A stretch of DNA of 64,000 bases from Reichenbachiella sp. (lineage in GTDB: Bacteria; Bacteroidota; Bacteroidia; Cytophagales; Cyclobacteriaceae), in NCBI RefSeq assembly GCF_039944555.1, contig NZ_JBDUYN010000009.1, positions 128,404 through 192,403 on the forward strand, written 5' to 3'. The notes beneath the pieces were generated by a model. The model ran no database searches. It saw only the letters and a program-made list of their open reading frames with translations, and was not told the DNA's origin. The first letter of the stretch is position 1, and each line of letters opens with the position of its first letter. Positions 41,529 through 49,230 of this stretch are shown here, piece by piece. Position numbers and translations under genes: made by a program.

Positions 41529-41858
41529 GTGAGAAAAACATACATTGGAGAGCTAGAAGAAGTTGTTCTACTTACAGTCGCCATACTACAGGAAGGGGCA
41601 TATGGAGTGGCCATTACTCAATACATAGACACGCAGTTAGAACGTAAACTTAGCATCAGTGCGGTACATGCTACTTTGCATCGCCTTTCGGAAAAAGGAT
41701 ATGTCAATTCCAGTATGGGAGGTGCAACTTCCGAACGTGGCGGAAGAAGAAAAAGGTATTTCAAAGTAACTACGGCGGGAAGCCGTGTACTGAATGAAAT
41801 CCAGGACGCCAGAAGTCTGCTCTGGAGTCAGGTTCCACCAAACATTTTGGCAACATGA
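41529..41858 (+). CDS. PadR family transcriptional regulator
   Basis: IGELEEVVLL, AYGVAI, AVHATLHRLSEKG, RGGRRKRYF.VT.AG; GTG start. Confidence 0.92.
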   Translation: MRKTYIGELEEVVLLTVAILQEGAYGVAITQYIDTQLERKLSISAVHATLHRLSEKGYVNSSMGGATSERGGRRKRYFKVTTAGSRVLNEIQDARSLLWSQVPPNILAT

Positions 41859-44440
41859 AGCGATCATCCCTTCCCCCAAAATGGATAAACTCCTTACTCA
41901 CCAAAGTTTGTAAACCCGAACTTCTCGAGGAGATCGAGGGAGACCTTTTGGAATATTATCAGCTATGGGTCGAAAAATATGGGTCGAAAAAGGCAAACAG
42001 GCTTTATGTATTCCATGCTATAAAGTTCTTGCGGCCTTTTGCAATCAAAAAATCAAAGTCACACAGCTCAAATTCACTAACTATGTTAAGACATTCACTT
42101 CTTTTATCATTTAGAAATTTCAAACGTTACAAGAGTTCCTTTTTGATTAACCTGATTGGACTTTCCTGTGGGCTGGCCTGTACTTTATTCATTTATCTAT
42201 GGGTGAATGATGAACTAAGTGTTGACAAATTTCATGAGCATGAAGGACAACTGTATAAGGTCATTGAACATGTGAAATTCGATGGTTCTGGTGTTACGAC
42301 CTGGAAAGAAACTTCTGGCCCAATGGCTAAAGCGTTGAGAGAAGAAATGCCTGAGGTTGAATTTGCTGTCGCCGTTATTCCTGGTTCCTGGTTTGGAAAG
42401 ACTTCACTTTCTGTTGGAGAACATGACATTAAGGCGAATGCCTATTATGTTGAGAAGGATTTTTTCAATATTTTCTCCTATGAACTGATATCAGGGAATA
42501 AGGACCAGGTACTATCCGATATAAATTCAATCGTCCTGTCTGAAAAATTGGCTCTGACCCTGTTCAACACTACTGAGAATGTTATTGGTAAAACAGTGGA
42601 GTTTGAACAAGAACGGCAATTTCAAGTTTCTGGCATTTTTGAAAACATTCCTTCCAATTCAACGGCTCAATTCGATTTTGTCTTGTCCTTTGAATTGTTA
42701 AAGGATAAACCTTTGGGCGTAGATAGTTGGGGCAATTTAGGACCTCAGGTTTACGCGGTGTTAAAAAAAGGAACTCTTATTGACAATCTAAATAAGAAAG
42801 TAGGCATGATTATTAAAAACATGTATAAAGAGTCTACGCGAACCCCAAGCTTAATACCCTATTCTCAGGATTATCTTCGCGGTACCTATGAATATGGAAT
42901 TCAGATCGGGGGTAGAATCGAATATGTGAGATTATTCTCTATTGTTGCCCTGTTCATTTTGTCTATAGCTTGTATAAATTTTATGAATCTGTCTACGGCC
43001 AGGGCTTCCCGAAGAGTAAAAGAAATCGGAGTAAAGAAAGCCATGGGGGCCAATCGTATGGCGTTCGTTTTTCAATTTCTCACCGAGTCGATTTTTATAA
43101 CCGGCTTAGCCTTGGTAGTTGCTCTTTTGTTAGTCATTCTTTTACTTCCACAGTTCAATGAGGTTATAGGAAAGCAATTGGCGCTGGAATTAAATGCAAA
43201 CCTTGTTTTTAGAGCTTTCGCAATCGTTTTGTGTACAGGACTCATGGCCGGGAGCTATCCTGCACTTTACCTATCCAGTTTTAATATCATCAATGCATTG
43301 AAAGGAAAGCTAAGTAGTTCTATTGGGGAGCTCTGGACTCGGAAAGGATTAGTTATCATTCAATTTACACTTTCTATCATATTGATTCTATCCGTGTTGG
43401 TAGTTTATAAGCAGATTGGGTTTGTGCAAAATCGAAATCTTGGTTACGACAAGGACAACATTGTGCATTTTAAGGTAGAAGGAACAATCAAAAAACAGTT
43501 GGAATCTTTTGTATTTGAATTGAAAAAGATACCAGGTATAGTCAATGCTTCGAGTACTACCCATGATATGGTAGGCCATAACTGGTCGGTTGGTATAGAT
43601 TGGGAAGGAAGGGATTCAGACAAGCCGATCTCATTTCAAGTTGTTGGAGTAGACTATGACTTGATAGAAACCCTGGAAATGGAAATAACCACAGGACATA
43701 GTTTTAGTAAAGACTTTGGGTCTGATAGCAAAGGCATTATTTTTAATGAAACAGCTATAAAAGCTATGGGTCTTTCCGATCCCATTGGTAAGACCATAAG
43801 GTTTATGGGGGAGAAAAAAATCATCGGAACAGTTAAGGACTTTCACTTTAAATCACTGCACGAAACTGTTGAGCCATTGTTTTTAGTTATGATGCCTGAA
43901 GCAGTTAAAAAAGTAATGGTTAGGATTGAGGCTGGAAGGGAGCGTGAAGCCATTGAAAAAATACGGGCTTTCTATGAAAACTTTAATCCGGGATTTCCCT
44001 TTGAGTATCAATTTTTAAATGAAGATTATGCGACACTGTATGCCTCGGAACAGCGTGTTGCGACATTATCCAAATATTTTGCTGCTATAGCCATTATGAT
44101 TTCTTGTCTGGGATTATTCGGTCTTGCTGCCTTTAGTGCCGAAAGAAGGATGAAAGAAATTGGCGTTCGAAAAACATTGGGTTCAAGTGTATTTGGCATA
44201 GTAAGGCTACTGTCTGAAGATTTTACTAAAATGGTGATCTTTTCAATTACCATTGCTTTGCCGATCAGTTATCTAGTGGCCAAAGAATGGTTGGACAGTT
44301 TTGCCTATCGCATCGCCCTGGAATGGTGGTATTTTGCTTTTGCAGGTTTGTCCGCACTTCTTATTGCCTGGCTGACTGTAGGTTTCCAAACCTATAATGC
44401 TGCCAGAATCAATCCAGTGAAGTGTTTAAGAGATGAATAA
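41855..44440 (+). CDS. MacB/FtsX-like ABC transporter permease with N-terminal prefix domain
   Basis: LLEEIEGDLLE prefix; LACINFMNLSTARA..R.KEIGVKKAMGA; ERRMKEIGVRKTLG; NPVKCLRDE. ATGA overlap with PadR. Confidence 0.93.
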   Translation: MKRSSLPPKWINSLLTKVCKPELLEEIEGDLLEYYQLWVEKYGSKKANRLYVFHAIKFLRPFAIKKSKSHSSNSLTMLRHSLLLSFRNFKRYKSSFLINLIGLSCGLACTLFIYLWVNDELSVDKFHEHEGQLYKVIEHVKFDGSGVTTWKETSGPMAKALREEMPEVEFAVAVIPGSWFGKTSLSVGEHDIKANAYYVEKDFFNIFSYELISGNKDQVLSDINSIVLSEKLALTLFNTTENVIGKTVEFEQERQFQVSGIFENIPSNSTAQFDFVLSFELLKDKPLGVDSWGNLGPQVYAVLKKGTLIDNLNKKVGMIIKNMYKESTRTPSLIPYSQDYLRGTYEYGIQIGGRIEYVRLFSIVALFILSIACINFMNLSTARASRRVKEIGVKKAMGANRMAFVFQFLTESIFITGLALVVALLLVILLLPQFNEVIGKQLALELNANLVFRAFAIVLCTGLMAGSYPALYLSSFNIINALKGKLSSSIGELWTRKGLVIIQFTLSIILILSVLVVYKQIGFVQNRNLGYDKDNIVHFKVEGTIKKQLESFVFELKKIPGIVNASSTTHDMVGHNWSVGIDWEGRDSDKPISFQVVGVDYDLIETLEMEITTGHSFSKDFGSDSKGIIFNETAIKAMGLSDPIGKTIRFMGEKKIIGTVKDFHFKSLHETVEPLFLVMMPEAVKKVMVRIEAGREREAIEKIRAFYENFNPGFPFEYQFLNEDYATLYASEQRVATLSKYFAAIAIMISCLGLFGLAAFSAERRMKEIGVRKTLGSSVFGIVRLLSEDFTKMVIFSITIALPISYLVAKEWLDSFAYRIALEWWYFAFAGLSALLIAWLTVGFQTYNAARINPVKCLRDE

Positions 44441-44990
44441 AATTCAAAACTATATTGATCTTCCAAATGGCTAAACCTATTCCACATGACACGTATGCGA
44501 GGCCAATAATAACTCCTTAATGAACGCATAAATTGTTTTTAAGGACTCCCCTTTCTAAGCGGACAAAGAACTGACAAAAGCATGTCGATTCTCATCATTT
44601 TCTCATTTTAGATAGGAAAAAAACAGGAAACCCTCCCCACTTTTAAAAAAGTGGAAAGGAATGAGAAAAACAACCGTGGCTTAGCCGTAAATTCTGATGA
44701 CGAAATAGTTCGATACGCTTTTGTGCAATATATAACCCACTGAATAGAGTAACCCAGCGAACCTTTTAGAAGTAAATTGAAAGTGAGAAACTGACATGTT
44801 ATTACATTTCTGGCGCCTGAAGAGTACCATAATAAATTACCTTTCGCAGTCAAACTAAATTTCAGCCCTGATAGTTCTATCAATTATTCATACTTTACAA
44901 TACAAAAGACACAGTTAGACGGTTTTCTATCTTATGCTCATAATTTGATAATCATTATAGTCCTTAATTGTAATTCAATAAATCAGCAGA

Positions 44991-47705
44991 ATGTCCAATA
45001 TGATCTTAACTTTTGTTATCAAATCTTTCAAATCAATGAAATCAACCCTATCCACTCTGATTATAACCATAGTTTTATCACATACTACTTTCGGGCAAAC
45101 CTTGGATGAGTTAAGCGAAAAGGTCATGGAATCTTATTCCAAAGGAGACTATGAAAATGCTTTGTATTATGGCGAAAAGAGTGTAGCGCAAGTGGAAAAA
45201 GAATTTGGAAAAGAACACGAAGATTACCCTATAGCTGTCCGTAATTTGGCTCTATTTAATAGGTTATTGGGTCACTATGCAGACGCCGAATCTCTTTATC
45301 AGGAAAGTATTCAAATAATAAAAGAAAGACTAGGCGAAAACCACCTGAATTACGCTGTCTCCGTTAATGGCTTAGCCATATTATACCAGGAAATGGGTCG
45401 TTATATTGAGGCAGAAACTTTGTATAAAAAGAGTAGTGAAATACGAATAAAACTATTAGGAAAAAATCACCTTGGCTATGCGAAATCGCTTAATAGTTTG
45501 GCTACGTTATATCTCAAAATGAAACGATATAAAGAGTCAGAGGGGTTGCATCTGAAAAGCATAGAAATAAAAAAAAACATATTAAGTGAAGATGACCTCA
45601 GCTATGCTTTCTCCATTATTAATTTAGGGTACTTGTATCAATTAATGGGGCATTACGAGAAAGCCGAGAAAATGCTCAAACAAGGTTTAGAAATACGAAA
45701 GAAGAGCCTGGGCACAAATCATAATTTGTATGCGGTTTCTCAAAACAATTTAGCCCTACTTTATAGAGAAACGGGGCGATATACTGAGGCAGAGGTTTTA
45801 TACAAAGAGAGTATTAAAATATTTAAGGATCAATTGGGTAAAAAACATTCAAGGCATACCACAGCTCAGGTTAATTTGGTGATGTTGTATCAAGGCATTG
45901 GAGATTTGTCTAAAGCGGAACCTTTGTTTCTGGAAGCCATTGACAATAGACTGAACCAAATGGATTTGAATTTCCCATCGATGAGTGAGAAAGAAAAAAG
46001 ACAATTTTGGAAAACTATAACCAATGATTTTCAACTTTTCAATTCTTTTGTGGCAGAAACAATTGAGAATGAGCACGTAAAGAATCTAACAGGTCAGATG
46101 TACAACAACCAGTTGGCCATAAAAGGAATTCTACTCAATGAAATTTCCAAAATAAAAAAGGCAGTTACGCACAGTGAAGATACTGCTCTGATCAACTTGT
46201 ATAATGAATGGAAAACTAAAAGAGACAACTTAAGTAGAGCGTATTCATTATCCATAAAACAAAGGGAACAACAAAACATTAATATTCCAGAAATCCAGCA
46301 ATCAATCAATAACCTGGAAAAGAAATTATCTTTAAAATCAAAGGCTTTTGCAAACGCGAATAAACGCTTTACCTGGAAGGAAGTCCAACGACAGCTTAAA
46401 CCCAAAGAAGCAGCAATTGAAATCGTACGATTCAGGTGGTATAATAAAAATTGGACGGACACTGTTTATTATGCTGCTTTGATTGTTACTCCTGAAATCG
46501 CGGATCAACCAGAAATGGTCTTACTAGAAAATGGAAATGAACTGGAAAATAATTGTTTAAACTACTACAGAAACTCGCTCAAGAAATTATCTGTGGATGA
46601 ACAATCATACATTCATTATTGGCAACCTATTCAAGATAAACTTGAAGGAATAAAGAAAGTCTATTTTTCTGCAGATGGTGTTTACAATCTTATCAATTTA
46701 AATACACTTTTGAAGCCCCAACTGAATACTTATGTGCTTGACGAAATAGACATACAATTAGTCACAACTACCAAGGATATTGTTGAATTCGCATCGTCCC
46801 CATCTGCTGTCCCAAAGAGTAGCTTAACTGCTCACTTATTTGGAAATCCTTCTTACAACCTCGCATACGACCAGTACCAACAAGTGATGGATGTTAATAA
46901 AAACACCTCTAGAACACGCGGCATTGAAAGCTTTGATGAAACATTACCCCTTGGAGAATTTATCCCTCTGGCTAGAACTGAACAAGAAATTAATAATATT
47001 CATCAACTACTAAGAACTAATGATTGGAAAACGACAACCTACCTGGGAACTGAGGCCCTGGAGGAGCGTGTGAAAGAATTGAATAGCCCAACGTTGTTGC
47101 ATATAGCCACTCATGGTTATTTCAAATCAGTGGAGAATAAAAATGGAGTAGAAATTAAGGGAAATTCGGACGAGTCTTCAATGCTAAACTCAGGATTGAT
47201 ATTAGCAGGGGTTACCAATTATTATGAGTCTGAGGAAAAACCTCTAATAGAAGATGGAATTCTTACCGCTTATGAGAGCACAACATTGAATTTGGATAGT
47301 ACAGAACTGGTTGTGCTTTCCGCTTGCGACACGGGCTTAGGTGAGTTAAGTCACGGAGAAGGAGTTTATGGACTTCAGAGAGGACTAAAGGTAGCAGGAG
47401 CCAATAGTGTAATGATGAGTTTGTGGAAAGTAAATGATGAGATCACTCAAGAATTGATGACCCAATTTTATAAAGAATGGCTAAAAAATGGAGATAAACT
47501 CAAAGCTTTTAGAGTAGCCCAACAAAAAATTAAAAACAAACATCCACATCCGTATTACTGGGGAGTTTTTGTACTTGTCGGGGATAATACGCTTATTGAG
47601 ACAGAAGCTAGAATAAACGGTGTTATCTTTTCATTGGCTGGGTCCTTTATCGTGATATTAGTGGGGTTTGCAGTACAAAAGTTTCGAAACAATCAATTCA
47701 GCTAG
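44991..47705 (+). CDS. TPR-CHAT (caspase-like) protease with signal peptide and C-terminal membrane anchor
   Basis: About 7 TPRs; catalytic dyad motifs LHIATHGYF (His 47112-47114) and VVLSACDTG (Cys 47325-47327); SLWKVND, PYYWGVF; likely start at the third Met (MKSTLSTLIIT..FGQ); hydrophobic C-terminal helix. Confidence 0.92.
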   Translation: MSNMILTFVIKSFKSMKSTLSTLIITIVLSHTTFGQTLDELSEKVMESYSKGDYENALYYGEKSVAQVEKEFGKEHEDYPIAVRNLALFNRLLGHYADAESLYQESIQIIKERLGENHLNYAVSVNGLAILYQEMGRYIEAETLYKKSSEIRIKLLGKNHLGYAKSLNSLATLYLKMKRYKESEGLHLKSIEIKKNILSEDDLSYAFSIINLGYLYQLMGHYEKAEKMLKQGLEIRKKSLGTNHNLYAVSQNNLALLYRETGRYTEAEVLYKESIKIFKDQLGKKHSRHTTAQVNLVMLYQGIGDLSKAEPLFLEAIDNRLNQMDLNFPSMSEKEKRQFWKTITNDFQLFNSFVAETIENEHVKNLTGQMYNNQLAIKGILLNEISKIKKAVTHSEDTALINLYNEWKTKRDNLSRAYSLSIKQREQQNINIPEIQQSINNLEKKLSLKSKAFANANKRFTWKEVQRQLKPKEAAIEIVRFRWYNKNWTDTVYYAALIVTPEIADQPEMVLLENGNELENNCLNYYRNSLKKLSVDEQSYIHYWQPIQDKLEGIKKVYFSADGVYNLINLNTLLKPQLNTYVLDEIDIQLVTTTKDIVEFASSPSAVPKSSLTAHLFGNPSYNLAYDQYQQVMDVNKNTSRTRGIESFDETLPLGEFIPLARTEQEINNIHQLLRTNDWKTTTYLGTEALEERVKELNSPTLLHIATHGYFKSVENKNGVEIKGNSDESSMLNSGLILAGVTNYYESEEKPLIEDGILTAYESTTLNLDSTELVVLSACDTGLGELSHGEGVYGLQRGLKVAGANSVMMSLWKVNDEITQELMTQFYKEWLKNGDKLKAFRVAQQKIKNKHPHPYYWGVFVLVGDNTLIETEARINGVIFSLAGSFIVILVGFAVQKFRNNQFS

Positions 47706-47854
47706 TTTTTGATAAGCCGCTGCAATGCTGGATTTGAAAACATGTAACCCAATTATGCTTAAAAGATCATTTAGCCCCAACCCCATCAACGATAGCTCAA
47801 TTCAATTTTACAAAAGCGAATGGGGTAGTACAAATGATGGCAGCGACTAGGGAA

Positions 47855-48544
47855 TTAGTTAGCTATTTCATCAAGCAATTGCGATGCCTCTTGATACTTA
47901 TACTCGCCAATTTCAATTTCCCTTAATATCTGAACTGCTTGCTCGTTACTATTCATTTTTAGATAGCAAAGAGAAAGATACCATTGCGCGTAGGGCTTCT
48001 GATCTGTTTGAAGCAACTCTTTAAAAATGCTTTCTGATTTTTCCTGTCTATTGGCGGCTAAATAGGATATCCCGAGATAAATTTTTTCTTTGTTGTTTAG
48101 CAAATTCATATTTTCAAATTCGGTAAACGCTTTTTCATATTCAGCATTACTGTAATGGAACATTGCCATTGATCCGTCAGATGCTGATCTGTGTGATATG
48201 AAGTTTGTGTAAGGCTCAAAGTATTGATCAAATAGGCTTTTACCTGGAGTAAGTAGATATACCGTACTTATTATAATCGTAATAGATGCGGCTATTCCAG
48301 CCCATCTCCATGATGATAATTTTATTATTTTGGTCGCCTTATTTTTTTTATCAAAAATGGCACTCATTTCGTTTTTAATAGCAACTACTTTCAAAGCATT
48401 AACACTCTCTTTATAGAGGTCAAACTGACTTTGGAGTTCTGGCTCCGTAGCTAACATTTTTTCAAATTCCATTTGACTCTCCTCGGAAATATCATTGTTG
48501 ATATATCCATCAAATTTTTCGATGAGTTCCTGATTAATTTTCAT
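47855..48544 (-). CDS. Putative anti-sigma factor with TM helix and periplasmic TPR-like domain
   Basis: N-terminal LIEKFDGYINNDIS.E....FEKML...PEL; TM WAGIAASITIIISTVYLL; AQWYLSLCYLK; ATGA overlap with the ECF gene. Confidence 0.75.
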   Translation of the reverse strand: MKINQELIEKFDGYINNDISEESQMEFEKMLATEPELQSQFDLYKESVNALKVVAIKNEMSAIFDKKNKATKIIKLSSWRWAGIAASITIIISTVYLLTPGKSLFDQYFEPYTNFISHRSASDGSMAMFHYSNAEYEKAFTEFENMNLLNNKEKIYLGISYLAANRQEKSESIFKELLQTDQKPYAQWYLSLCYLKMNSNEQAVQILREIEIGEYKYQEASQLLDEIAN

Positions 48545-49107
48545 TCTACGAAATCTTTAATGGCCAATTTTTTTTTGCTTATTAGTTGCATTAAATGTTT
48601 CATGCATCTCAACTTCTTGTTTTTAGTTGCTTGAATACTCCCAAGCCCAAAGAGTCTTTGTATTTCCTCCATACTTTTGGATTCAAAATAAAATGCCTTT
48701 AAAACTCTTTGACAATCCGGATTTAATTCGTTGATGATTTTCTCCAATCTTTGTAAACTGACATATTCATTTTTTACATCCTCTACTTCTACTTCGCCTA
48801 AGATATCGACTTCAGTAATCTTACTATTCTTTCTGATTTTCATCAGCCATAGGTTCTTGCATATGGAGTAGGTATAAGTATTTAAAGAAGCCTCCTTCTT
48901 AAATTTATTTTGTAATACATTCTGAAACACAATGGCTATTCCATCTTGAAAAACATCTTGTGCGTCTTCCTCCGAGCCGGAATTATTTAGCACAAAGCTT
49001 TTTATAGATTTAAAACAGGTATCATAAAGATATTCTAAAGCCTTATTTCTCTTCTTATAGTCATTTGAGCGGATTTTACTTAACAGTGTCTCATCAGGTA
49101 TTGGCAA
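48541..49107 (-). CDS. ECF RNA polymerase sigma factor
   Basis: EDAQDVFQDG..., TYTYSICKNLW, region 4 LNPDCQRVL..FYFESKSMEEI; TTG start. Confidence 0.88.
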   Translation of the reverse strand: MPIPDETLLSKIRSNDYKKRNKALEYLYDTCFKSIKSFVLNNSGSEEDAQDVFQDGIAIVFQNVLQNKFKKEASLNTYTYSICKNLWLMKIRKNSKITEVDILGEVEVEDVKNEYVSLQRLEKIINELNPDCQRVLKAFYFESKSMEEIQRLFGLGSIQATKNKKLRCMKHLMQLISKKKLAIKDFVE

Positions 49108-49230
49108 GAGTCGGTTTGTTTATTGGTTGATTTTAAATCGCAGAAGTCATCAAAAGTAAAAAAAAAATGATAATGATGATGACCTCGACAATTTTCATGC
49201 AACAAACACCTGTATTTGAAATTAGGAAGA

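Follow-up and report, generated by a model that had tools for sequence, protein, structure and literature searches.

The 64,000-nt stretch of the Reichenbachiella sp. genome analysed here (NCBI RefSeq assembly GCF_039944555.1, contig NZ_JBDUYN010000009.1, positions 128,404 to 192,403; hereafter the window) contains, beside an Rhs operon, three genes that encode a protein with tetratricopeptide repeats (TPRs) and a CHAT protease domain, a sigma factor of the extracytoplasmic function (ECF) type, and a 229-residue membrane protein resembling an anti-sigma factor. The TPR-CHAT gene and the gene for the 229-residue protein converge across a 149-bp gap, the latter is coupled to the ECF gene by a 4-nt overlap, and the ECF gene diverges from the first Rhs gene at a distance of 123 bp. 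The first-pass annotation of the window had described the same convergent trio, with the ECF start ~120 bp from the Rhs operon on the opposite strand, and both parts of that description hold. An identical gene order is found in a sibling genome (contig JBDWBM010000061 of GCA_039978375.1), where the length of the ECF gene is also unchanged.

The CHAT protein, the ECF sigma factor and the 229-residue protein

The likely start codon of the TPR-CHAT gene is Met16 of its open reading frame (ORF), where the database form of the protein (889 aa) begins. Translation from this position opens with the signal peptide MKSTLSTLIITIVLSHTTFG, after which Q is the next residue; a 94% identical protein from Reichenbachiella is present in NCBI. 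The chain continues with six KLC-like TPR_12 repeats (256 bits in Pfam), a helical middle region and a CHAT domain (res. 542–865; PF12770, 193.5 bits against a cut-off of 24), and closes with a hydrophobic helix and a short basic tail (KFRNNQFS) that together form the last 28 residues. The AlphaFold2 (AF2) model, built with 50 sequences, has a predicted local distance difference test (pLDDT) score of 87.4 and a predicted template modelling (pTM) score of 0.86. It displays an N-terminal TPR superhelix of the kinesin-light-chain kind joined to a caspase-like fold, as in TPR-CHAT proteases, and the C-terminal helix occupies model residues 857–888 of the 889-aa form. Loops of low confidence lie directly after His708 and Cys779, as would be expected of a resting caspase-like enzyme. 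A Foldseek search with the model returned full-length matches to Csx29 (8eey_B), separase (9hma) and DdvA (8rot_A, 8rw5) with E = 1e-11 to 3e-9; Csx29 is the best of them (TM 0.46/0.54), and the DdvA structures are matched across ~860–900 columns. From hydropathy and the AlphaFold model the protein is predicted to be exported and membrane-anchored, and the combination of an N-terminal signal peptide, a C-terminal transmembrane (TM) helix and a basic tail predicts a periplasmic CHAT domain. Pfam, motifs, hydropathy and AF2 thus bear out the first-pass description of an exported TPR-CHAT protein with an intact His/Cys dyad and a C-terminal TM helix.

The ECF protein matches TIGR02937 with 64.5 bits (cut-off 42.9) and Sigma70_r2 with 31 bits (cut-off 24), as a group 4 sigma-70 factor does; its Sigma70_r4_2 score of 22.1 bits is slightly below the cut-off of 25.7. 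The coupled 229-residue protein was modelled from 49 sequences with a mean pLDDT of 89. Its predicted cytoplasmic N-terminal domain consists of three helices (res. 5–15, 21–33 and 35–70) and contains no Cys within residues 1–78. A TM helix (res. 79–98) leads into a juxtamembrane helix (res. 100–108), a loop of lower confidence (res. 109–124; pLDDT 69 for residues 111–120) and a periplasmic module of three TPRs (res. 125–229), which in a fold search resembles the peptide-binding TPRs of YbgF, SycD and CHIP. Sequence searches of the PDB and fold searches with the whole protein were dominated by this TPR module and returned nothing on the N-terminal domain. Translational coupling with an ECF gene, a short cytoplasmic helical domain and one TM helix are the layout of class I membrane anti-sigma factors, and the model fits a single-pass anti-sigma factor that exposes a loop bearing a conserved Arg.

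Five proteins of this type are encoded in the genome. They align over their full length at 20–29% identity and have in common a motif just outside the membrane, LFxxYFxPYPN...R(G). The Arg of the loop, Arg119 in the window protein, is a candidate P1 residue for a site-1 cut. Separase and metacaspase-type enzymes of clan CD cleave after Arg or Lys; because Craspases do not, Arg119 is only a lead in this respect. The family is large: an exhaustive HMMER search at E ≤ 1e-30 yielded 1,963 representatives of clusters at 50% identity, almost all with 225–260 aa, which, where they are named, are called just 'tetratricopeptide repeat protein'. A word search with the single sequence gave almost no matches; the profile search succeeded.

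Table 1 Features of the CHAT/ECF locus and its surroundings in the window
Feature	Position	Strand	Basis or remark
TPR-CHAT protease gene	ORF 44991-47705, likely start 45036	+	ORF 904 aa; Pfam, AF2, Foldseek
Catalytic His708 codon (HIATHG)	47112..47114	+	column kept in 41/41 aligned CHAT domains
Catalytic Cys779 codon (LSACDTG)	47325..47327	+	column kept in 41/41 aligned CHAT domains
C-terminal TM helix of CHAT protein, predicted, res. 877-895	47619..47675	+	Kyte-Doolittle 2.48 over 19 residues
Anti-sigma-like protein, 229 aa	47855..48544	-	AF2; overlaps ECF stop by 4 nt (48541-48544)
Arg119 codon of 229-aa protein, loop between membrane and TPR module	48188..48190	-	invariant in 5 paralogues; at least 90% of 49 homologues
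ECF sigma factor, 188 aa, TTG start (49107)	48541..49107	-	TIGR02937, Sigma70_r2
Divergent intergenic region, 123 bp	49108..49230	.	ECF TTG 49107 vs first Rhs ATG 49231
First Rhs-operon gene ('RhsA-like'), 1061 aa	49231..52416	+	signal peptide, one C-terminal RHS/YD repeat
Second Rhs-operon gene, 1382 aa	52418..56566	+	signal peptide, PKD-like repeats, DUF6443 (135 bits)
Third Rhs-operon gene, ~2209 aa	56592..63221	+	signal peptide, repeats, leucine-rich repeats (LRR), RHS repeats, Rhs-associated core, variable C-terminal domain
9-mer copy TGATGACTT	49144..49152	-	45 nt upstream of ECF start
9-mer copy TGATGACCT	49177..49185	+	54 nt upstream of first Rhs-operon ATG
MacB/FtsX permease	41855-44440	+	ORF list

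Conservation of the trio and of the membrane tail

A profile built from the five 229-aa-type proteins was searched against 61 genomes (60 relatives and this one) and gave full-length matches in 30 of them. We fetched and annotated 20 kb around 40 of the homologues: an ECF gene is adjacent in 37 of the 40 loci, and in 27 a gene for a CHAT protein of 875–1150 aa is no more than a few genes away. The background density of CHAT genes is ~1 per Mb (297 in the 61 genomes), so that a random 20-kb window holds one ~2% of the time, and the observed neighbourhood is far beyond chance. Across the phylum, the 229-aa family is present in 21 of 201 sampled Bacteroidota genomes (~10%) from 17 genera; among the 27 loci of that sample outside this genome, 25 have an ECF gene and 17 a CHAT gene. 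The trio also occurs in Formosa maritima, Flavobacterium piscinae and two Bacteroidales metagenome-assembled genomes, and its synteny extends over Cytophagales, Flavobacteriales and Bacteroidales. The genes differ between loci in their order and orientation (convergent, co-directional or divergent), yet adjacency is retained, the commonest arrangement being a CHAT gene convergent with the anti-sigma gene. The Reichenbachiella genome itself, with 13–14 CHAT genes, contains five trios, located by tblastn and custom hidden Markov models: that of the window and those at C1:79095-83585, C13:73956-78472, C4:663508-667774 and C8:84984-89576. We consider it very probable that the three genes work together as a conserved module.

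Pairwise distances among 30 trios were compared between the three proteins. They co-vary most strongly for anti-sigma and ECF (r = 0.67), followed by anti-sigma and CHAT (r = 0.54) and by ECF and CHAT (r = 0.33). The weaker correlation of the last pair is as expected if the CHAT protein deals with the anti-sigma factor.

Linkage to an ECF gene goes together with a particular form of the protease. The ECF-linked CHAT proteins (29 full-length examples from related loci and those of this genome's five trios) continue for ~40 residues past the end of the domain (...PYYWGxFxLxG), and this extension is a hydrophobic helix followed by a basic tail. Seven CHAT proteins of this genome whose genes do not adjoin an ECF gene end at the domain end and have no tail. 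The His/Cys dyad is kept in tailed and unlinked proteins alike. In a maximum-likelihood tree of the CHAT domain, the window protein sits on a long branch and groups with four of the unlinked paralogues with support of 100/100. Given this placement, the window CHAT is not an orthologue of the usual module protease; it carries the same tail in the same position, convergent with the 229-aa gene, and is the sole tailed member of its clade in this genome. Tailed relatives of the window CHAT adjoin an ECF gene and a partner of 227–245 aa at four further loci, L048 (61% identity to the window CHAT), L105 (52%), L049 (49%) and L107 (46%). Given these relatives, the window represents a second, separately tailed lineage of ECF-linked CHAT proteins. 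We regard the existence of two tailed lineages as the strongest comparative argument for a need of membrane tethering in work with the ECF pair.

Two other relatives, L050 and L106, each 48% identical to the window CHAT, are found without an ECF gene. At L050:1-13045 the tailed CHAT gene of the window clade stands head-to-head with the operon of a contractile injection system (sheath, tube, baseplate, PAAR, Pvc16_N) and near a JetABCD/Wadjet-like set, and we detected no ECF or anti-sigma gene adjoining it. At L048:1-13406 two tailed CHAT genes flank the ECF/anti-sigma pair, together with two ORFs of 57–58 aa and a lanthipeptide dehydratase gene, and this locus is a possible peptide-linked form of the module. 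In the window, a search of 44441-44990 for a small GG-leader peptide gene gave no convincing candidate. At two loci in congeners of the window strain, L008 and L011, an Rhs operon and an ECF/anti-sigma pair diverge from each other and a CHAT gene is missing from the vicinity. Both genomes also have, at another place, an Rhs-linked module that does include a CHAT gene, so that a single protease might act on two anti-sigma factors.

The Rhs operon and other neighbours of the module

Three large genes make up the operon that diverges from the ECF gene. The third has the features of a polymorphic toxin locus, with scores of 42.3 bits for RHS_repeat and 51.6 bits for the Rhs-associated core (TIGR03696, cut-off 32.5). 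An open frame of at least 196 aa begins 190 bp past this toxin gene, in the position of an immunity gene, and exits the window (63412-63999).

RhsA-like paralogues adjoin other ECF/CHAT modules. Three of the five modules of this genome touch a three-part Rhs operon: in the window and in C13 the ECF gene is divergent from the RhsA-like gene (the spacing in C13 is 184 bp), and in C1 the CHAT gene heads an operon that continues into Rhs. Two congeners have two Rhs-linked loci each (L008 and L019; L011 and L014), and over the window, C13 and these four loci the divergent spacing between ECF and RhsA-like genes is 123–503 bp. On the metagenome contig L049, RhsA-like and DUF6443/Rhs-core genes lie directly upstream of a window-type CHAT gene. 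The co-occurrence with Rhs loci that the first-pass annotation had proposed to survey thus recurs, at three loci here, four in two congeners and one on a metagenome contig. Most modules, in addition, face genes other than Rhs, which encode giant proteins of the type IX secretion system (T9SS; DUF5018, cadherin, Big_5, SprB, FG-GAP), an LRR/fn3 giant, subtilases, a PKD/DUF7849 protein, a TonB-dependent-type barrel or a LysM protein. The common theme of the neighbours is a large exported or surface protein and not Rhs as such; the Rhs link recurs but is optional. The first-pass annotation had seen in the module a trigger for the Rhs toxin; the view that it is specific to Rhs was rejected on these grounds and on the small share of RhsA-like genes that have a module (4 of 42). 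The Rhs operon is a plausible target of the ECF sigma factor in the window, at somewhat less than an even chance.

Several further neighbourhoods were recorded. The contig edge at G000:C9:786-7443 (L005) has an RhsA-like gene immediately preceded by a tailed CHAT gene, and no ECF or anti-sigma gene was detected within 5 kb. The modules at G000:C4:663508-677462 (L003), L007, L009, L027 and L032 face giant T9SS-secreted proteins of 1650–3182 aa with DUF5018, cadherin, Big_5, SprB, FG-GAP and Por_Secre_tail domains, and the intergenic regions of L003, L007, L009 and L032 contain TGTATAC(C/G) in both directions. At L089, L092, L095 and L097, all from one genus that is probably Flavobacterium-like, the genes for the CHAT protein, a PKD/DUF7619/DUF7849 protein (650 aa) and a 327-aa protein follow one another in this fixed order on the same strand, and the ECF/anti-sigma pair diverges from them; the CHAT gene is apparently within the putative target operon. 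The window-type module has a PadR regulator and, after it, a MacB/FtsX-type permease in its vicinity at three places: the window (41529-44440), its sibling (L047:520-3431) and L049 (17501-20391). This recurrence may be coincidence, as MacB/FtsX paralogues are very numerous in this genome.

Alignment of orthologous intergenic regions revealed conserved blocks with TGT(A/T)(T/G)ACC, from which a degenerate 9-mer, TG[AT]T[TG]AC[CT]T, was derived post hoc, after viewing the data; its background is 0.0093 per 150 nt. Of 68 module ECF genes, 8 have the 9-mer upstream in their own orientation and 9 have it upstream in the divergent one, with both present at four loci, the window among them; in either direction the enrichment is ~13-fold. 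In the window and in L002 it stands ahead of the ECF gene as well as the RhsA-like gene, and in L008, L011 and L014 ahead of the RhsA-like gene. An imperfect 30-nt inverted repeat (49123-49152 / 49177-49206) has the two window copies at its ends, and the Rhs-side copy TGATGACCT resembles TGTTGACCTCGCAGAC, found upstream of the ECF gene of the distant relative L107. A scan for sigma-70 and terminator consensus sequences returned sites no more frequent than in shuffled sequence, and footprinting against the sibling was uninformative (151 bases aligned across the 123-bp intergenic region, 100% identical). About 185 nt upstream of the Met16 start of the CHAT gene (45036), positions 44838-44856 of the window read ATTACCTTTCGCAGTC, loosely like TGTTGACCTCGCAGAC of L107 and TGATGACTTCTGCGAT of the window.

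A possible split form of an ECF switch

The trio can be read, with about an even chance of being right, as a split, two-protein version of an ECF switch of the DdvA/DdvS type. The sigma factor would be made together with the single-pass 229-aa protein, whose cytoplasmic three-helix N-terminus would hold it inactive, and which would present in the periplasm a short helix, a flexible 16-residue loop with R119 and the small three-TPR module. The TPR-CHAT protein would be exported by its signal peptide, and its C-terminal helix would keep it anchored at the outer face of the inner membrane; because of this tether, His708 and Cys779 would lie in the same plane as the R119 loop. A periplasmic ligand bound by the large TPR array (or by the partner's small TPR module) would activate the CHAT domain, which would then make the site-1 cut in the periplasmic part of its partner. 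An RseP-type site-2 protease would complete the cleavage and release the sigma factor; the genome encodes an RseP-like M50 protease (PF02163, 215.8 bits; G000:C16:270542-271789). Free sigma would transcribe its own operon and the divergent neighbour operon, Rhs here and other giant exported proteins elsewhere. Cleavage of the anti-sigma factor by the CHAT protein is the leading mechanism, to which we give an even chance at best. The identity of the ligand, the cut at R119, the anti-sigma function, the CHAT cleavage and the Rhs target are all parts of this scheme that we infer. The first-pass annotation had put forward the same chain, with periplasmic TPRs sensing a ligand, CHAT clipping the anti-sigma factor and the ECF switching on Rhs; it finds partial support here.

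Among known systems, DdvA/DdvS of Myxococcus xanthus (PMC11506125, PMC6061681) comes nearest. DdvA combines an anti-sigma domain, a TM helix and a periplasmic TPR-CHAT region in one chain of 991 aa that acts in a dimer, and its authors propose that CHAT makes the site-1 cut in a flexible juxtamembrane linker in trans within the dimer, followed by RseP; degradation by RseP after removal of TPR-CHAT is shown, the first cut itself is not (PMC11506125). DdvA lacks the three-helix active-site motif (PMC11506125, PMC6061681). Both systems pair an ECF sigma factor with a single-pass TM partner and have a periplasmic TPR-CHAT region (in our case predicted) with a His/Cys dyad, and as with DdvS, whose regulon is a neighbouring conflict locus, the neighbour here is such a locus, an Rhs operon in place of CBASS and CRISPR. 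The window system differs in being encoded by two genes on opposite strands, each protein having its own predicted membrane helix, so that cleavage would take place in trans between different proteins. Unlike DdvA, with its CHCC zinc-binding N-terminal domain, the 229-aa protein has an N-terminal domain without Cys. Reports of DdvA-like fusions are limited to Myxococcota and one Comamonas (PMC11506125), whereas the split form is spread through Bacteroidota.

Other systems resemble parts of the trio. Genes of the ECF54 group are found in a context of carboxypeptidase, subtilase and CHAT proteins; for this group control by proteolysis has been suggested, and an anti-sigma factor is said to be lacking (PMC8999054). 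Like ECF54, the window system keeps a CHAT gene beside the ECF gene, but it has a dedicated membrane partner coupled to the sigma factor. The type III-E Craspase (Cas7-11/Csx29/Csx30/Csx31/CASP-sigma, PMC10028731) likewise contains a TPR-CHAT protease, and there the cut frees an ECF-type sigma factor from its inhibitor. Craspase is cytoplasmic, RNA-guided and bound to Cas7-11, in contrast to the window protease, which has a signal peptide and a membrane tail and is predicted to be periplasmic. The analogy with Craspase drawn by the first-pass annotation is looser than that with DdvA, since there are no CRISPR genes and the protease is predicted outside the cytoplasm. Among the Pfam and NCBIfam matches near the locus no CRISPR-associated family was found, the neighbours being MacB/FtsX, ECF, the TPR protein and Rhs genes. 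In the DegS/RseA/RseP/sigma-E pathway of E. coli, a membrane-tethered, peptide-sensing periplasmic protease cuts a single-pass anti-sigma factor and a site-2 protease completes the release. The proposed layout is the same, and a site-2 protease is encoded here. The enzymes themselves are unrelated in sequence: DegS is of the serine type, senses through a PDZ domain and is anchored at its N-terminus, whereas the window protein belongs to the cysteine proteases of clan CD, has TPRs as the sensor and is predicted to be anchored at its C-terminus. Literature searches for a split CHAT/anti-sigma/ECF module in Bacteroidota found nothing beyond DdvA, Craspase and the remark on ECF54. What is new here is a probable DdvA-type ECF control whose module is split into two membrane proteins and is widespread in a different phylum, with a CHAT lineage whose tail is separate from that of the usual module proteases.

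A number of observations weigh against the split-switch reading. The N-terminal 78 residues of the 229-aa protein have no significant match in Pfam, NCBIfam or PDB sequences to known anti-sigma domains, the best being zf-HC2 at a non-significant E = 0.17 in one paralogue only, and because of this the designation as an anti-sigma factor rests on the coupling to the ECF gene, topology and shape. The central step, cleavage by CHAT, is itself an inference, and it is not demonstrated for DdvA either (PMC11506125). No CHAT gene is near in 13 of the 40 loci among relatives and in 10 of the 27 in the phylum sample, and the anti-sigma homologues at such loci retain the conserved Arg loop, which is thus not specific to CHAT-linked members. 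The distance correlations are confounded by shared descent and drop to 0.32, 0.26 and ~0 (in the order given above) without near-orthologous pairs. Among 42 RhsA-like frames (at least 1000 aa) in the 60 relatives, just 4 are adjoined by a module. As to promoters, at many loci the 9-mer overlaps with TAnnTTTG, the housekeeping -7 box of Bacteroidetes, chance alone would give ~0.4 inverted pairs of 7-mers in 123 bp, and when dyads and k-mers were enumerated in the upstream regions of 42 ECF genes, T-rich words and TAnnTTTG were all that emerged, with no ECF-type -35/-10 pair. The 9-mer is suggestive of co-regulation of ECF and Rhs genes, a lead and not proof, because it was defined post hoc, some of the loci are orthologous pairs, it overlaps the housekeeping box in part and it has no -35 partner.

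The sparse linkage to Rhs fits another account, in which the module is real and does not control the Rhs operon, their adjacency being due to shared residence in variable genomic islands that accumulate Rhs cassettes and ECF modules. We regard this as a distinct possibility, though not the probable case. It is in line with a module at only three of the ~8 Rhs loci of this genome as well as at few of those in the relatives, with the confinement of Rhs-linked cases to one genus and one metagenome contig, and with the lack of an ECF-type promoter defined with confidence; it leaves unexplained that six independent or diverged loci keep the divergent spacing of ECF and RhsA-like genes despite 28–37% protein identity, that the same 9-mer stands before both genes in two of the loci and before the RhsA-like gene in three more, and that the equivalent position elsewhere is again taken by a large exported protein. 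That the three window genes are neighbours merely by chance might be argued from the tree, which places the window CHAT in an otherwise ECF-unlinked clade, and from the location of its nearest paralogues elsewhere in the genome. This we reject as highly improbable, the idea being largely refuted by the C-terminal helix that the window CHAT alone has in its clade of this genome, by the tailed relatives (46–61% identity) beside ECF and anti-sigma genes in four further contigs, and by the identical arrangement in the sibling genome.

The role of the CHAT protein within the module could also be a different one. It might be an output or accessory, with the ECF/anti-sigma pair sensing alone and the tethered CHAT, ECF-controlled or constitutive, processing or quality-controlling the large exported neighbour proteins as they cross the periplasm. 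The near-constant presence of such neighbours would agree with this role, as would the CHAT genes of L089, L092, L095 and L097, in an operon divergent from the ECF gene and behind the PKD/DUF7849 protein, the C1 CHAT gene that heads the operon running into Rhs, and the anti-sigma homologues that keep the same periplasmic features with no CHAT nearby. We think it unlikely, since the cargo varies freely while CHAT, anti-sigma and ECF remain together, CHAT distances co-vary with those of the anti-sigma factor and not of the ECF, the commonest layout, convergent with the anti-sigma gene, gives CHAT its own promoter outside the cargo operon, and an inner-membrane tether fits a membrane substrate better than transiting cargo. 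Alternatively, CHAT could be a co-sensor or scaffold that regulates the anti-sigma factor by binding (TPR-TPR or helix-helix), its protease being aimed at another substrate such as a periplasmic signal or an incoming foreign protein, with sigma freed by conformational change or by another site-1 protease. Both partners bear TPR modules of a peptide-binding kind, dyad mutants of DdvA behaved as wild type under the conditions tested (PMC11506125), and the loops of low confidence beside His708 and Cys779 recall resting caspase-like enzymes; strict retention of the dyad in all ECF-linked CHAT proteins nevertheless argues that catalysis matters, and the simplest membrane-proximal substrate is the exposed loop of the partner, which makes this second role quite improbable in our estimate.

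Should the split-switch reading be correct, a caspase-like enzyme would join the short list of site-1 proteases, and a very common 'TPR protein' of Bacteroidota would gain an anti-sigma function. It would also offer a plausible explanation of how Rhs toxins and giant T9SS surface proteins are switched on in this phylum. The natural two-protein form separates enzyme from substrate, so that the cleavage hypothesis is directly testable in vitro and by genetics; the split module occurs in culturable Bacteroidota (Reichenbachiella, Flavobacterium piscinae, Formosa maritima), and the five modules of this genome, three of them beside Rhs, lend themselves to studies of how look-alike signalling pairs maintain specificity. 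More tentatively, the C-anchored TPR-CHAT proteins of Bacteroidota may constitute a large family of dedicated caspase-like ECF site-1 proteases, each with its own anti-sigma factor and wired to a 'surface or weapon' operon. Production of Rhs proteins in Reichenbachiella would then be conditional on a periplasmic cue, for example contact with or attack by a competitor, and a soluble periplasmic CHAT protein would have been recruited to this task a second time by gaining a tail.

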